Part shown: positions 29,434 to 35,094 of the stretch, in pieces
How positions within the stretch are numbered: position 1 is the stretch's first letter
Layout of the letters: every line of letters begins with the position of its first letter
Source of the DNA: Ginsengibacter sp.
GTDB lineage: Bacteria; Bacteroidota; Bacteroidia; Chitinophagales; Chitinophagaceae
Assembly: GCA_039915005.1 (NCBI GenBank)
Contig: JBDSOE010000172.1
Location: 348 to 64,347 of the forward strand
Reading direction: 5' to 3'
Length of the DNA stretch: 64,000 bases
Program-made: the position numbers and the translations under genes
Notes under the pieces: generated by a model
Database searches by the model: none
Told to the model about the DNA's origin: nothing
The model's input: only the letters and a program-made list of their open reading frames with translations

Positions 29434-31554
29434 TTGAACCAACAACTCCATATAGCTTTAGTAGGAAATCCAAACTGCGGTAAAAGCTCTCTTTTTAATG
29501 CCCTCACAGGGTTGAATCAAAAGGTGGGAAATTTTCCGGGAGTTACGGTTGATAAGAAAACAGGTATCAGCAAAATTTCTGAAAAACTTACTTCAAAAAT
29601 AATTGATCTTCCCGGTACTTATAGTTTGTATCCGAAAAGGAATGATGAATGGGTTTCTTACAAAGTATTAATTGATCAGGATCCTCATATAAAAACGGAC
29701 ATAATTGTGTTGGTGGCAGATGCCAGCAATCTGAAAAGGAATCTTCTGTTTTGTTCCCAGATCATTGATTTGAAAAAGCCGGTGGTGATAGCGCTTACCA
29801 TGATGGACATTGCCCAAAAGAATGACATTAAAATTGATGTAGCCGGCCTGCAGAGGGAGTTAGGCGTATTGGTGATCCCGGTAAATCCCAGGAAGAACAA
29901 GGGGATTCAGCAATTAAAAAAAGCGATAGAGCAAACCTCCGAAAATGTTCATCCTATACCGGAAAAAAACTTTATTAATGTAGAGCCTTTCGCACCCGAA
30001 GCCATTAAAAAGATACAACAAATTTTCCCCGGAACCAGTAGTTACAGGGCGATTCATTACCTCATCAATCACGAAAATTTCAATTTAAATGATACGCTCC
30101 AGGAAACGATAGAAAATATTGAGATAGAAACAAAATTCAATCCGACAAGGACACAGGCGGAAGAAATTTTACAACGATATGGTAAAATAAAAACCATTAT
30201 GAAGCAGACGGTAGTGGAATCTGATCCGCTGCAAAAAGCGTTATTTACTCAACGGCTCGATGACGTTTTATTGCACCGCACCTGGGGGTATGTGATATTG
30301 CTCGCGGTTCTTTTTCTATTATTTCAAAGCATTTTTGTTATTGCCCAATTTCCCATGAATGCTATTGAGTGGACGTTTGCGGAAGCGGGAGGTTGGCTCG
30401 GAAAGGTGTTACAAGCTGCCTGGTACAGTGATCTTTTTATAAATGGAATACTGGCAGGCCTTAGCGGCATCATCGTTTTTGTGCCGCAAATAATGATTCT
30501 TTTTGGATTGATAACCTTGCTGGAAGATACAGGCTATATGGCACGCATCAGCTTCCTGACGGATAAGGTGATGCGAAAAGCAGGGCTAAACGGAAAAAGC
30601 GTAATGCCCATGATAAGCGGCCTTGCCTGTGCGGTGCCGGCCATAATGAGTGCGCGGAGTATTGAAAATAAAAAAGAGCGGTTATTGACCATTATGGTTA
30701 CGCCGCTCATGAGTTGCAGTGCAAGATTGCCGGTATATACTGTATTGATCGCGTTAGTAATTCCGAATAAGATGTTTTTGGGTTTTGTGAGTTTGCAGGG
30801 GTTGGTGATGATGGCGATGTATTTTATGGGCACCTTTATGGCACTGGCTTCAGCATTTGTAATGAAGTGGTTTATAAGAAGCAAAGAGAAAAGTTTTTTT
30901 ATTCTGGAACTACCTGCTTATCGGGGCCCGAGGTGGAAAAATGTAGTAACTACTATGGTGGAAAGGGCAAAAATTTTTGTAGTGGATGCCGGAAAGGTTA
31001 TTATGGTGATCAGCTTATTGCTTTGGGTTTTAAGTTCATTTGGTCCTGCTAAAAAAATGTCGGCAGTTACCGCGAAGTACGAAACGCTGATACAACAAAA
31101 TCCTTCACAGCAAAAGCAATTGAATAAACAAAGAAGCACCGATTATCTTGAAAATTCCTATGCCGGTATCCTCGGCAGATCCATTGAGCCGGTAATAAAA
31201 CCTTTGGGTTACGACTGGAAGATAGGCATTGCATTGATTACTTCATTTGCGGCTCGCGAAGTTTTTGTGGGTACCATGGCCACTCTCTATAGTGTAGGTG
31301 ATGATGCCGATGAAAACAATTCGACGTTAAGGGAAAAAATGACGGCAGCTACCTGGCCCAATGGCGATAAAGTTTATACCATGGCTGCGGGTTTATCGCT
31401 TTTGATTTTTTATGTGCTGGCCATGCAATGTATGAGCACCCTTGCTATTGTAAAAAGAGAAACCCATAGCTGGAAATGGCCCATCATCATGCTTACTTAC
31501 ATGACGGGACTGGCCTATGTGATGAGCTTTATAACGTTTCAGATATTTAAGTAA
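29434..31554 (+). CDS. feoB: Ferrous iron transport protein B
   Basis: GNPNCGKSSLFN (G1), NFPGVTV, DLPGTYSL, MSCSARLP, FAAREV. Confidence 0.97.
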   Translation: MNQQLHIALVGNPNCGKSSLFNALTGLNQKVGNFPGVTVDKKTGISKISEKLTSKIIDLPGTYSLYPKRNDEWVSYKVLIDQDPHIKTDIIVLVADASNLKRNLLFCSQIIDLKKPVVIALTMMDIAQKNDIKIDVAGLQRELGVLVIPVNPRKNKGIQQLKKAIEQTSENVHPIPEKNFINVEPFAPEAIKKIQQIFPGTSSYRAIHYLINHENFNLNDTLQETIENIEIETKFNPTRTQAEEILQRYGKIKTIMKQTVVESDPLQKALFTQRLDDVLLHRTWGYVILLAVLFLLFQSIFVIAQFPMNAIEWTFAEAGGWLGKVLQAAWYSDLFINGILAGLSGIIVFVPQIMILFGLITLLEDTGYMARISFLTDKVMRKAGLNGKSVMPMISGLACAVPAIMSARSIENKKERLLTIMVTPLMSCSARLPVYTVLIALVIPNKMFLGFVSLQGLVMMAMYFMGTFMALASAFVMKWFIRSKEKSFFILELPAYRGPRWKNVVTTMVERAKIFVVDAGKVIMVISLLLWVLSSFGPAKKMSAVTAKYETLIQQNPSQQKQLNKQRSTDYLENSYAGILGRSIEPVIKPLGYDWKIGIALITSFAAREVFVGTMATLYSVGDDADENNSTLREKMTAATWPNGDKVYTMAAGLSLLIFYVLAMQCMSTLAIVKRETHSWKWPIIMLTYMTGLAYVMSFITFQIFK

Positions 31555-31616
31555 GGGCTTTCCTATGGATTGTAAAGCAAGAAATTCCCACTATCCACTA
31601 CCTTGTATCCATTTTT

Positions 31617-31818
31617 CTCTGTGGCTCTCTGTGTTTTCTCCGTGCCACTCTGTGTAATGCCTTCTTTATTACACAGAGAACCGCAGAGAACCACTGAGTT
31701 GCACAGAGTTTTTGTATCCCTTTTTTCTTTGTGGCTCTCTGTGTTTTCTCCGTGACACTCAGTGTAATACCTTCTTTCTTACACTGAGAATCGCAGAGAA
31801 CCACTGAGTTGCACAGAG
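31617..31818. repeat. Heptamer-hairpin array, left arm (two 110-bp units)
   Basis: Each unit is 4 x CTCTGTG-like, then TAA-N11-TTA, then 4 x CACAGAG-like heptamers at 10-11-nt pitch. Confidence 0.92.
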
Positions 31819-31820
31819 CG

Positions 31821-32204
31821 TTAACGAACATATCTTTTCAGGCCGTTCTTTAAAAGGATTACATTAAAATTAATTAACAATCCTACGGGTTTTTCGGCAA
31901 ACTTCATATAAGTAAGTATCTGCGCTTCATGCACGTCATTAAATACCTCTACTGTTTTTAATTCAAAAACTATTGTGCTTTCTACAAGAATATCCATGCG
32001 ATACCCTCATTCCAGCTTTATTTCTTTGTACACTACTGGAACGGCCTTTTGCCTCTCAATATTCAAACCGGCTTTTATTAATTCATAAACCAGGCATTCC
32101 TCATAAGCAGATTCTAATAATCCGGGACCTAATAATTTATGCACCTCCATTGCGCATCCAATGATGGTATGAGTTAATTGTTGATATTTAAATTCCTTTT
32201 CCAT
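31821..32204 (-). pseudogene. GxxExxY protein (PD-(D/E)XK-like), single in-frame TGA at 32007-32009 (nonsense or recoded)
   Basis: GPGLLESAYEECL..VPVVYKEIKLE*GYRMDILVESTIVFELKTVE..HEAQILTYMK..GLLINFN..NGLKRYVR*. The frame is intact through the stop for 127 codons. Confidence 0.88.
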
Positions 32205-32249
32205 CTTATTTGATTTTCATGTTATAAATACTTAATGACCAACTTTTTT

Positions 32250-32380
32250 CTCTGTGGCTCTTTGTGTAATGCCTTCTTTCTTACACTGAGAACCGCGGAG
32301 AACCACAGAGTTTCACAGAGTTTTTTTGTAGCCTTTTTTCTCTGTGGCTCTCCGTGCCTTCTCCGTGCCACTCTGTGTAA
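32250..32380. repeat. Heptamer-hairpin array, right arm (1.5 units)
   Basis: Same heptamer blocks and same spacers (TGCCTTCTTTC; TTTTTGTA..CTTTTT) as the left arm. Confidence 0.9.
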
Positions 32381-32407: not shown

Positions 32408-35014
32408 TTAATATCTCCTGGCCAGCACCACCGTGTTTTTAAAAGCCTTCTTTTTTCCTTCCACATTAAAAATTTCGGTGTAAACAATATAAATTCCTTG
32501 CGGAAGTTTCCGGTTTTTATCATCCAGGCCATCCCAGCGATAGTACCCATTTATGCCGCTCAATGAATTTTTTTGAAGATAACGCACAGGCCTGCCCGAA
32601 GCATCGAACACGGTTATGTTGGCAACAAAACCGGCGGAAGGAAAACTGTAACTGATCGTAACAAAATCATCTATGCCGTCATTATCGGGAGAAAATATTT
32701 CCGGCATAACGGTGATGTCTCCACGCACTTCTTCATATGGCAGGTATTGGGAATTTTTATATCCCGGAGTGCCGTATCCCACTGAGGCAGCCGCGGAATG
32801 AAAATTGCTTTGCCCGGAAGCCGCGTCATAATCTATTCTTTCCAAAGCAACGCCCTGTGCATTTTTTATCAATGGGAAATGCCAACTTTGATCATAGGCA
32901 ACTTCATCTACGATGTTTCCCTGGTGGTTTAAAATAATTACATTTCCGTGGGTATTGGAAAAAGAAGGGAAGCTATTTAGTTTTAAAAAGGCATCAGGGT
33001 TGGTAGTAAGGTATTGATTTTTTACTGCGTCAATATCGGTACTTAATAAAATGAATTGTTGTGGGAACAATAAAATACTTTCCTGAGATACCTGTTGAAT
33101 GCCGCTGATGATGTTTCTGCTGTTGCGATTGGCAATAAATATTTTATTCAGATCAATGATTTTTTTAGAACGATTATAAAGTTCCACATAGTCAGCACCC
33201 ATTGGCCTGGGGTTAAAAAGAATTTCATTAATTACTAAATCGAGGTTGTCTGCATCCTGCGCCAAACCAAATTGGGCGGTGTTCTTTGCGCCAATGATAT
33301 TACCCTTGCAATCCGAAATATTTTTCGTTGTAATGGTATATACCGTACCGGAAACTATGGGATTAATAAGTGTAATATTTACTTTATCAAACAGCGGAGG
33401 AAGGGCTATGGCCTCTCTTGCGATCAACCCGTTATTGAATGTATAATTACTTATGAAAGCGGCTTTCAGGCTGTCTAAAGGTTCATCAAAAACCAAAGTG
33501 AGTTTGTCTTCACCGGTGGCAAAGGCACGTAATAATTTGGGGGAGGTATCATCTTTATTGATTCCGTCCACGGAATTTTTTCTTCCTGGAGTGCCACCAT
33601 TTGGATCCACACTTGCTTTCCAGTTAGAAGATCCTGCGCAGGGATTCTGAGTATCTATCATCTCCAATGTCCATCCGCCATTTTTTTTAAGCTCATTTTT
33701 ATACCAGCCAACTTCATAACGCAATGCATGGATTGTTTTGCCCGAGGCATCAGAAAGAAAAATTAATTCTCCATCATTATCAAGCGAGGGAAAATTACTT
33801 ACGCTTATTGCGTGGCCGAAAGAAGAAAGGCCGGCAATTGCCGATCCCGTACTAATTATAACGAAACTATCAGGCTGTAAAATATAGTTGGGCATAAGCC
33901 CGCTTGTGCCTGAAAGATCGCCGAACTTCCATCCCTTTAAATTGATAGCAAAGGAAGAAGTGTTTTTTAGTTCAATCCATTCATTATTTGGCAAGCCAAC
34001 CTGTGGAGATGGATCAGCCATTAACTCATCTATAACTACATCATATTGTTGGGGAGTGTAAAAACTAAAAGTGGTGGTAGCGTTATTGACTGGGTTGCCA
34101 GCTACATCTTTTACGCCATTTACAGTCAACGTATATAAAGCACCGTTAGTGAAGGGGGAATTAAAAGTAAGATGGACCAGTGAAGCATTCCCGGCATCAG
34201 CGACAACACTCACGGGCATTCCCAGATTATTAACAGAGTAGTTGGAAAATACTCCGCTGCTTGCAGGATCTAAAGGTTCATTGAACCATACATTGAGCTG
34301 TGTGTTGGAGACAGCAGTGGCAGAATCTATTATAGGTGGCGTAAGATCGGGCGAATAATAGCTGATTTTAATATCATCAAAAAAATGTTTTTGGAAAAAA
34401 GCGGCGGTGCTTTGTTTTATAAAAAAACCAAAATACGAGGAGGTTGTGTAGGTGGCATCCGTGGCCGAACCTTCGCTGGTGTAGCCGGTATCCATTCCGC
34501 TCACTTCTCTTAAAAGCGTCCATTTATTGTTAGCGTCTCTTACCACTTTAATTCGCATTGCATTATTGCCTGTGTTGAGAATGTCATCTTTTCCGTCAAT
34601 AATTTTTACAATGGTTCCTGAAGGGCTTTTGCGATAAAGAGAAATTTCATCATCGGTATTTCCTATTCGTACAAAATATCCATAAGTGGCATTCAGGCTT
34701 ACATCACTTGCCGAAGCAGTTAGATACACATCAATATAGTTAGCGGAGGAAGGATTGAAAGCCATTTTAACCCAGAATTCCCACTGGGCATTTGTGGCAA
34801 GCGTATTTACAGTGCTCAGGTAAAAAGTATGATTTGCAATGGTATTATTACTTTGTAAGTGATAGGAATTATTTACTACAAAATCAGAGACGTTACCAAT
34901 CCATTCAGGGCTGTTGGTAAAGTCGCCATCACTGAAATTTTCAGTTATCTGTGCTTTGGTAATTGAGCCAGGGATTAGAAAAATAATAAGACAGAAATAA
35001 AACTTTCTACCCAT
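32408..35014 (-). CDS. Lamin-tail-domain / Ig-like (SbsA) protein with C-terminal gliding-motility (CHU_C, T9SS type B) domain
   Basis: VVIDELMADP..EWIELKN and VINEILFNP..DYVELYN (two LTDs), FNEPLD Ig-like repeats, PEIFSPDNDGIDD..WDGLDD..GIYI C-terminal domain. Confidence 0.85.
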   Translation of the reverse strand: MGRKFYFCLIIFLIPGSITKAQITENFSDGDFTNSPEWIGNVSDFVVNNSYHLQSNNTIANHTFYLSTVNTLATNAQWEFWVKMAFNPSSANYIDVYLTASASDVSLNATYGYFVRIGNTDDEISLYRKSPSGTIVKIIDGKDDILNTGNNAMRIKVVRDANNKWTLLREVSGMDTGYTSEGSATDATYTTSSYFGFFIKQSTAAFFQKHFFDDIKISYYSPDLTPPIIDSATAVSNTQLNVWFNEPLDPASSGVFSNYSVNNLGMPVSVVADAGNASLVHLTFNSPFTNGALYTLTVNGVKDVAGNPVNNATTTFSFYTPQQYDVVIDELMADPSPQVGLPNNEWIELKNTSSFAINLKGWKFGDLSGTSGLMPNYILQPDSFVIISTGSAIAGLSSFGHAISVSNFPSLDNDGELIFLSDASGKTIHALRYEVGWYKNELKKNGGWTLEMIDTQNPCAGSSNWKASVDPNGGTPGRKNSVDGINKDDTSPKLLRAFATGEDKLTLVFDEPLDSLKAAFISNYTFNNGLIAREAIALPPLFDKVNITLINPIVSGTVYTITTKNISDCKGNIIGAKNTAQFGLAQDADNLDLVINEILFNPRPMGADYVELYNRSKKIIDLNKIFIANRNSRNIISGIQQVSQESILLFPQQFILLSTDIDAVKNQYLTTNPDAFLKLNSFPSFSNTHGNVIILNHQGNIVDEVAYDQSWHFPLIKNAQGVALERIDYDAASGQSNFHSAAASVGYGTPGYKNSQYLPYEEVRGDITVMPEIFSPDNDGIDDFVTISYSFPSAGFVANITVFDASGRPVRYLQKNSLSGINGYYRWDGLDDKNRKLPQGIYIVYTEIFNVEGKKKAFKNTVVLARRY

Positions 35015-35094
35015 TATTATTAGTTTTGATTTTAAAGATAAATATTTTAGCCTTTCTTTGTAAATAATCATTTATAAATTTGAAATAAAACAAA

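Follow-up and report, generated by a model that had tools for sequence, protein, structure and literature searches.

What are 26 short, phased words doing around a broken nuclease gene in the DNA between feoB and a gene for a secreted protein? The question is raised by a 64,000-nt stretch of a Ginsengibacter sp. contig (the window, on whose forward strand all coordinates without a contig name are given), in which a small gene of the GxxExxY family, embedded in a structured array of heptamers, lies within 31617-32380. In Pfam and in a 2012 survey of PD-(D/E)XK proteins, the function of GxxExxY/PF13366 is listed as unknown. A search of the full-text literature gave no description of a link between GxxExxY genes and such arrays, just incidental mentions of GxxExxY or PF13366. 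In this study, the closest relatives of the window gene were found to be regularly accompanied by phased word arrays, the gene and its arrays form a cassette with sharp boundaries, and the words differ between clades of the protein.

The words are strongly enriched at this site. Exact CTCTGTG or its complement occurred 14 times in the 64-kb window versus 2.7 times expected, and a count of at least 14 was reached in 0 of 100 shuffles; 12 of the 14 exact CTCTGTG/CACAGAG occurrences fall within 31617-32377. A search with the word CTCNGTG/CACNGAG, allowing at most one mismatch, identified 26 phased heptamers, 21 of them exact and five with one mismatch (CGCAGAG twice, CGCGGAG once and CTTTGTG twice), four more overlapping out-of-phase matches being left out of this count. 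The words are grouped in blocks that follow each other in the order L1, R1, L2, R2, gene, L3, R3 and L4, with two words in L3, and their pitch is 10/11/10 nt in L blocks and 10/10/10 nt in R blocks. The heptamer count, the L/R block order and the 10-11-nt pitch that an earlier note had read from the letters of this DNA were thereby reproduced.

The same note had made its reading depend on an enrichment of heptamer arrays beside GxxExxY homologues, and a massive enrichment was found among 80 loci that encode the closest relatives of the window protein (60-89% identity) in Bacteroidota (many orders), Ignavibacteriota, Chlorobiota (Chlorobiaceae) and Fidelibacterota. Word clusters were present in 75 of the 80 loci; at 73 of them at least three phased words were no more than 150 nt away from the gene, on both sides of it in 41, whereas 511 kb of control DNA around the feoB homologues of similar organisms contained two word clusters. 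The link between gene and array is not local chance. On the sense strand, the usual layout is TTA-CACNGAG-n3-CACNGAG-n4-CACNGAG-n3-CACNGAG-(0-20 nt)-ATG, followed by 123 codons and by stop-(0-5 nt)-CTCNGTG x4-TAA, and the order R-gene-L was observed in 45 of the 80 loci. A second architecture was present in 7 of the 80 loci and in genome G046: here the gene stands between GTGTAA and TTACAC and so outside the units, with a complete palindromic unit on either side of it, the two in direct orientation (L065, L071, L055, L085, L098 and L039:3990-4440 among them). One-directional arrays that have no partner arm were also observed, at L104 and L085. At L104 (2853-2959 and 3385-3491), the arms have grown to 8-10 words with identical spacers (CACAGAGata repeated), as if a 10-nt unit had slipped, whereas the spacers elsewhere are free.

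An all-against-all comparison of the 80 loci located the unit boundaries. L056 and L061 have 477 nt in common, between -57 relative to the ATG and +47 relative to the stop, L051 and L081 have 463 nt in common (-47 to +44), and the two closest relatives of the window gene, L044 and L045, share 508 nt; in all three pairs the flanks are unrelated. Homology between loci with unrelated flanks ends exactly at TTACAC on one side and GTGTAA on the other; the block common to unrelated loci amounts to ~465 bp and the cassette to ~0.47 kb. As a unit bounded by terminal inverted repeats, it is thus found in unrelated contexts.

Furthermore, the words follow the protein clade, a co-variation of heptamer and protein that the earlier note had suggested looking for. 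More distant GxxExxY genes (34-54% identity) in relatives bear other words (CGCAGAG, CACCAAG/CTTGGTG, CACATAG/CTATGTG, CATTAAG and CACGAAT), and among the 80 loci those with the CACGAAG variant group together on the protein tree, a value as low being obtained in 12 of 500 shuffles. An internal replicate of this link between word and clade is found in the genome of the window itself, a metagenome-assembled genome of 289 contigs with 90.6% completeness. Its second GxxExxY gene (C274:8-411), which belongs to another clade, is frameshifted and starts 7 nt from the contig end, has AATTCGTG words directly following its stop. These words also form ~31 gene-less clusters in the genome, where fewer than one would be expected by chance, and 33 of 34 are intergenic (C224:3602-3668, C271:21301-21375, C51:10486-10583, C101:13788-13835 and about 26 more). 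An ARAGORN call of a 'tRNA-Stop(tta)' at C2:2348-2437, abutting a AATTCGTG array, was discarded as a weak false positive with 30% G+C and many G-T pairs. At the level of whole genomes of the order Chitinophagales, a close homologue (E <= 1e-30) was present in 24 of 27 array-rich genomes (those with at least seven array matches) versus 11 of 32 array-free genomes (Fisher p = 2e-5, not phylogenetically corrected). A homologue was present in 26 of the 27 array-rich genomes; in the array-rich genome G227, no GxxExxY homologue was detectable.

How the window array is built can be read against these boundaries. A repeat search revealed a unit of ~110 nt that recurs around the small minus-strand gene, and two spacer types that alternate between the blocks as the earlier note had described: type a, TAA-tgccttcttta-TTA, of 17 nt in three copies, and type b, tttttgtatccctttttt, of 18-19 nt in two copies plus a partial one. 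With TTACAC and GTGTAA as the conserved outer ends at other loci, spacer a connects adjacent units by their outer ends and spacer b is the place of the gene, in agreement with the earlier placement of the gene at a type-b spacer with its stop 2 nt from R2. The array opens 49 nt beyond the feoB stop with the partial type-b spacer ttgtatccattttt (31603-31616), the start of direct-repeat family D2. Forward-strand blocks and spacers then follow: L1 (31617-31654, four CTCNGTG words at a pitch of 10/11/10); spacer a1 (31655-31671), the junction of the neighbouring units' outer ends GTGTAA and TTACAC; R1 (31672-31708, four CACNGAG words, one being CGCAGAG, at a pitch of 10/10/10); spacer b1 (31709-31726), in the place that the gene takes in the gene-bearing unit; L2 (31727-31764, with the words CTTTGTG, CTCTGTG, CTCCGTG and CTCAGTG); spacer a2 (31765-31781, direct-repeat families D3/D4); and R2 (31782-31818), whose four words read CTCNGTG x4 on the sense strand of the gene, as the arm just past its stop codon. 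On the other side of the gene are L3 (32250-32266, two words, the shortened arm that precedes the gene on its sense strand), spacer a3 (32267-32283), R3 (32284-32320, four words), spacer b2 tttttttgtagcctttttt (32321-32339) and L4 (32340-32380, four words at 32340-32377 and a terminal TAA), where the array ends 27 nt before the stop of the right-hand gene.

Counted with their TTA/TAA ends, the units are a half unit of partial spacer b and L1 (31603-31657), a gene-less unit R1-b1-L2 of 99 nt (31669-31767), the gene-bearing unit R2-gene-L3 of 491 nt (31779-32269) and a second gene-less unit R3-b2-L4 of 100 nt (32281-32380), all arranged head to tail in this order and joined by a conserved 11-nt linker. 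An L-a-R-gene-L-a-R neighbourhood of the same kind recurs in other genomes (L063, L073). The units of the window are 89-92% alike. One other CACNGAG array exists in the genome, a gene-less array of layout R-L-R-L at C145:4141-4325, between htpG and a divergently transcribed secreted-repeat gene, and it is 78-84% like the window units. This gradient fits local tandem duplication, by which the window array most likely grew, judging from these similarities. A terminator role was also considered for the array and found unsupported, as no terminator-like site was found at it and the C145 array, lying between divergent genes, cannot be a terminator.

The gene itself (31821-32204, minus strand, 127 codons) is a GxxExxY gene of the PD-(D/E)XK type (PF13366 PDDEXK_3 in Pfam, TIGR04256 in NCBIfam). 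Its two halves score 67.3 and 61.4 bits with PF13366 and 71.1 and 60.7 bits with TIGR04256, above the curated hidden Markov model cut-offs of 22 and 35, respectively, and read as one frame it reaches 142.8 bits against PF13366. The motif residues G28-L-L-E31-S-A-Y34, D71 and E81-L-K83 are present. The break between the halves, attributed to a frameshift in the earlier note, turned out to be a single in-frame TGA at 32007-32009, so that the window gene does not have the intact open reading frame (ORF) of a functional member. At this position, close relatives have Cys (22), Tyr (9) or a few others (Q, F, S, I, T). A selenocysteine reading was ruled out: since no tRNA-Sec is present in the genome and the residue is variable in relatives, the TGA is an ordinary nonsense mutation, and this one codon makes the gene a pseudogene. 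Between the upstream arm and the ATG is an A-rich leader of 45 nt (32205-32249, minus strand). The flanks named in the earlier note were confirmed by Pfam domains. On the left lies feoB (29434-31554, plus strand; FeoB_N, Gate, FeoB_C), convergent with the cassette, and on the right an LTD/Big_5/CHU_C gene with a type IX secretion signal (32408-35071, minus strand), which is upstream of and co-directional with the GxxExxY gene. No transposase domain was found in the window by Pfam, and no cas genes adjoin the GxxExxY gene.

The protein itself looks functional. Across 69 sequences, E31, Y34, D71, E81 and K83 do not vary, and conservation of G28 reaches at least 90%. The ratio of nonsynonymous to synonymous substitution rates (dN/dS) was 0.03-0.12 in seven pairs, indicating that the protein is under strong purifying selection. 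A confident AlphaFold model, with a predicted local distance difference test score of 94.8, has a restriction-endonuclease-like PD-(D/E)XK fold. No solved structure matches the protein by sequence, and the nearest solved folds found by Foldseek (lambda exonuclease, Cas4 SSO0001, LHK-Exo, RecE and Hjc) are all weak matches, with E > 1e-3 and a template modelling (TM) score of about 0.5. Identity as a Cas4 protein was rejected: the PADLOC match is marginal (E = 0.0015, 16.8 bits), SSO0001 scores E = 2.6e-3 with a TM score of 0.45, and adjoining cas genes are missing. The family is very large, the PF13366 profile matching 32,786 clusters at 50% identity with E <= 1e-3 and 14,079 with E <= 1e-10. 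The best profile matches (P0001-P0012) are proteins of 270-295 aa with two fused GxxExxY domains, the second of which does not have the E-x-K motif. These fused proteins are a hint that the family may work as a dimer, possibly with one active site.

Gene-less arrays, for which a genome-wide scan had been proposed alongside arrays with GxxExxY genes, are present in the genome of the window, as described above, and in its relatives. BLAST among 60 relatives revealed the array family in a few genomes, and a pattern search gave 140 array matches in G046 (a complete 6-Mb genome), 46 in G020 and 4 in G060, with 0-1 in the reversed control. A GxxExxY gene abuts an array in G046 and G060, and in G060 the sole array flanks the sole GxxExxY gene. 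Most array loci of G020, G030 and G008 are not beside a GxxExxY gene. In one region of G020 (C48:1-17000; L036, L037), arrays occur about every 3 kb between tandem MacB/FtsX-type permease paralogues, with no GxxExxY gene nearby.

The cassette has spread horizontally, as the protein tree mixes phyla and the copies of Chlorobiaceae and Ignavibacteriales differ by a dN of 0.01 at a dS of 0.26. In one instance, a cassette was present in some genomes and absent from another in which the gene order is conserved. The order is gpsA-[cassette]-pgi in two species of Dysgonomonas, and Paludibacter sp. 221 has gpsA and pgi separated by 235 nt without any word, its own cassette being on another contig. At the window locus, the feoB C-terminus was searched in 40 genomes of the same genus and 29 loci were examined (L125-L153). 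None of the 29 had a GxxExxY or LTD gene within 1.5 kb of feoB. The neighbourhood downstream of feoB (31555-31602 in the window) is non-syntenic in these 29 genomes, with at least five arrangements, so that no empty site could be recognized there for the insertion suggested in the earlier note, and this differing gene order indicates that the 3' side of feoB is a rearrangement-prone boundary. No contig of the same species was found: exact-protein look-ups with the GxxExxY fragment and with FeoB were empty, and metagenome FeoB matches had at most 84% identity, the loci of these matches serving as the control DNA for the word clusters.

What in the arms is conserved bears on how they could be recognized. 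In 11 elements with the strict 4+4 template, complementarity at the word positions is 94%, whether the two arms belong to one element or to different elements. For the spacers, complementarity was 43.6% within an element versus 43.0% between elements, and for the central N 50% versus 34.5%. No robust arm-to-arm covariation of the central base was detected, with matches in 22 of 44 antiparallel and 25 of 44 same-order comparisons, and the few word variants displayed no G-U-type strand asymmetry (4 wobble-compatible versus 3 incompatible transitions). Hence the word and its helical phasing are conserved, rather than exact inverted repeats or a covarying stem. Because the arms are complementary at word positions alone, word-by-word recognition is favored over a conserved hairpin. 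In single-stranded DNA folding, L1-a-R1 gave -22.4 kcal/mol (z = -6.2) and R3-b2-L4 gave -21 kcal/mol (z = -5.5), and formation of a hairpin or cruciform is possible according to these predictions.

The reading that we favor, at a probability we judge to be evenly balanced, takes the GxxExxY protein for a repeat-associated nuclease that acts on its own phased words and either maintains or moves the cassette and the gene-less units. The locus would then be a decaying copy of a widespread ~0.47-kb cassette in which a PD-(D/E)XK gene of 123-127 aa lies between two inverted arms of about four words each. In the mechanism that we propose, the protein, which would probably be dimeric or of a higher multimeric state, would bind the phased words on one face of the duplex at both arms, bring the arms together and cut the DNA at the ends or close to them. 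Copying, excision or insertion could then follow for the cassette itself and, in trans, for gene-less units, as with a transposon and its miniatures or with the pairing of hairpin-forming doublets of repetitive extragenic palindromic (REP) sequences, called REPINs, with the REP-associated tyrosine transposase (RAYT). The gene is most likely expressed by read-through from the co-directional upstream gene, which is the simplest reading of its setting.

Several observations weigh against this reading. Neither a target-site duplication nor a recurring target motif was found at the cassette ends beyond the self-complementary TTA/TAA. The genome of the window has no near-identical dispersed copies, just the two CACNGAG loci that are 78-84% alike, and both of its GxxExxY genes are broken. 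The second architecture, with the gene outside the units, indicates that the arms are not simply the ends of a gene-carrying transposon. A cassette with intact ORF lies in the sense direction between leuC and leuD in Dyadobacter, Arcicella, Runella and another Cytophagales genome (L086:2943-3437, L087, L064 and L113), and retention of this position across Dyadobacter, Arcicella and Runella indicates that a cassette can be stable for very long. In these leuC-leuD cassettes, the inner arm words have decayed and the outer and innermost words are retained. No close relatives of the GxxExxY protein were found on viral contigs, and no PHROGs match was obtained for it. To our knowledge, no minimal PD-(D/E)XK protein acts as a transposase on its own.

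A wider form of the favored reading is that GxxExxY cassettes represent a new class of minimal mobile or selfish element, in which a nuclease of ~123 aa, the sole protein, would recognize arrays of helically phased 7-nt words and mobilize gene-bearing and gene-less units, its specificity for words evolving along with the protein in tens of thousands of lineages. We put this forward tentatively and hold it to be doubtful.

Would the arms not rather act in the transcript? In this alternative, the cassette would be co-transcribed with the upstream gene, and its arms would pair as a long stem around the ORF and serve as a processing, stability or translation signal, as in the ORF-bearing intervening sequences of 23S rRNA, the nuclease acting on RNA or being cargo. 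The genomic setting speaks for it. In 61 of 68 loci the gene upstream runs in the same direction, with a median of 97 nt between its stop and the ATG, and cassettes are situated within operons such as leuC-leuD. The window conforms to this pattern with its LTD gene upstream in the same direction, and no sigma-70-like promoter site was found in the 45-nt leader of its gene. On the downstream side, the neighbour shares the direction in 52 of 68 loci. The arms are also complementary at 6 of the 7 word positions and fold well, as given above (z = -5.5 to -6.2). However, the central base and the spacers are not complementary beyond background, the strand asymmetry expected of G-U pairing is missing from the word variants, and arrays running in one direction without a partner arm are found at L104, L085 and AATTCGTG arrays such as those of C224 and C271. 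Moreover, the gene-less C145 array lies between divergent genes, and no Rfam family matched in the window, where sub-threshold microRNA-like chance matches on hairpins were the sole output. We regard an RNA-level element as unlikely.

A domesticated, non-mobile binding system was given a similarly low probability. Here the words would be iteron- or operator-like sites for autoregulation, chromosome structuring or repair, inherited mostly vertically with occasional transfer by ordinary recombination. Helical phasing and conserved words with free spacers are typical of cooperative protein binding, and the long-kept leuC-leuD cassette with its intact ORF, the strong purifying selection, the absence of target duplication at the ends and the low copy numbers in most genomes would all fit. 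On the other hand, the invariant catalytic residues argue for cleavage rather than binding alone, unrelated contexts have no homology beyond the cassette, phyla are mixed in the protein tree, and some genomes contain dozens to more than 100 array matches (65 in G154 and 140 in G046). It is very unlikely that the arrays are an independent REP-like family moved by another factor, with GxxExxY genes occupying the same intergenic niches or hitch-hiking as cargo, for although most array loci of G020, G030 and G008 lie away from GxxExxY genes, the C145 array is gene-less and the array-rich G227 has no detectable homologue, the extreme enrichment at a fixed position beside the gene (73 of 80 loci, four phyla), the different word types of different protein clades and the homologue in 26 of 27 array-rich genomes all speak against it.

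How the cassette relates to known systems was also assessed. The earlier note drew a parallel to REP/RAYT systems, which holds for the logic of the layout, namely inverted flanking repeats, gene-less copies and co-variation of repeat and enzyme, and fails for membership, as there is neither an HUH enzyme nor a REP palindrome. As in the REPIN/RAYT systems of Proteobacteria, one small enzyme gene is flanked by inverted short repeats, and gene-less repeat copies capable of forming hairpins are dispersed through intergenic DNA or lie there in tandem. Each enzyme lineage has its own repeat sequence, and the gene can be inherited vertically for long periods. Unlike RAYT, an HUH Y1 tyrosine transposase resembling TnpA of IS200/IS605, the enzyme here is of the PD-(D/E)XK type, with PF13366 as its sole Pfam match. 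The repeats are 4+4 phased 7-nt words with free spacers, whereas REP sequences are imperfect palindromes of 20-40 nt with a conserved 5' tetranucleotide. For the most part, the cassette has low copy numbers, and the hosts seen here are Bacteroidota, Ignavibacteriota, Chlorobiota and Fidelibacterota. With insertion sequences and their miniature inverted-repeat transposable elements, the cassette shares a discrete unit with inverted ends (TTACAC...GTGTAA), which is the sole block common to unrelated contexts, and gene-less miniatures that retain both ends. It differs from them in having no target-site duplication, no recognized transposase family and no near-identical copies in its own genome, in arms that are multi-word arrays with conserved words alone, and in the position of the gene outside the inverted pair in a minority of loci. 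By analogy, the cassette may work like REPIN/RAYT or like a transposon with miniatures, yet it fails their defining tests of enzyme family, repeat type and target duplication.

Other systems offer partial parallels. The ends of Tn7 (TnsB sites), the ends of Mu and the R1 parC/ParR iterons consist of several phased protein-binding repeats, and TnsA of Tn7, a PD-(D/E)XK protein, is a restriction-fold nuclease able to cut transposon ends. As at those sites, the cassette has short sites at a spacing of about one helical turn in two sets around a core, and cooperative multimeric binding would be expected. Such systems need additional proteins, for example a DDE transposase or an ATPase, whereas the only gene of the cassette encodes a single protein of ~123 aa. 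The intervening sequences of 23S rRNA in Leptospira and Coxiella, with an ORF of PF05635, are alike in having a small ORF between complementary arms and in their sense insertion into a transcribed unit. The cassette, in contrast, lies between protein-coding genes, has an ORF of PF13366 without rRNA or Rfam matches, and its arms are not kept complementary outside the words. Free-standing homing endonuclease genes include those of the seg/mob type of phage T4, and PD-(D/E)XK homing enzymes such as I-Ssp6803I exist. They are likewise small nuclease genes between conserved neighbours, comparable to gpsA-pgi and leuC-leuD, with the site empty in related genomes. We know of no homing gene that needs repeat arms or leaves gene-less arrays behind.

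For the PF13366/GxxExxY family, the fixed pairing with phased words provides a specific and cheaply testable candidate substrate, and the clade-specific words provide natural variation in specificity. The cassette spans several phyla and sits inside housekeeping operons. For annotation, it accounts for a class of intergenic hairpin-like repeats, and for some contig breaks, in Bacteroidota and related phyla. If moving or maintaining the arrays is indeed what the nuclease does, then repeat and enzyme together would form a system whose enzyme fold is unlike those of REPIN/RAYT and of known transposases.

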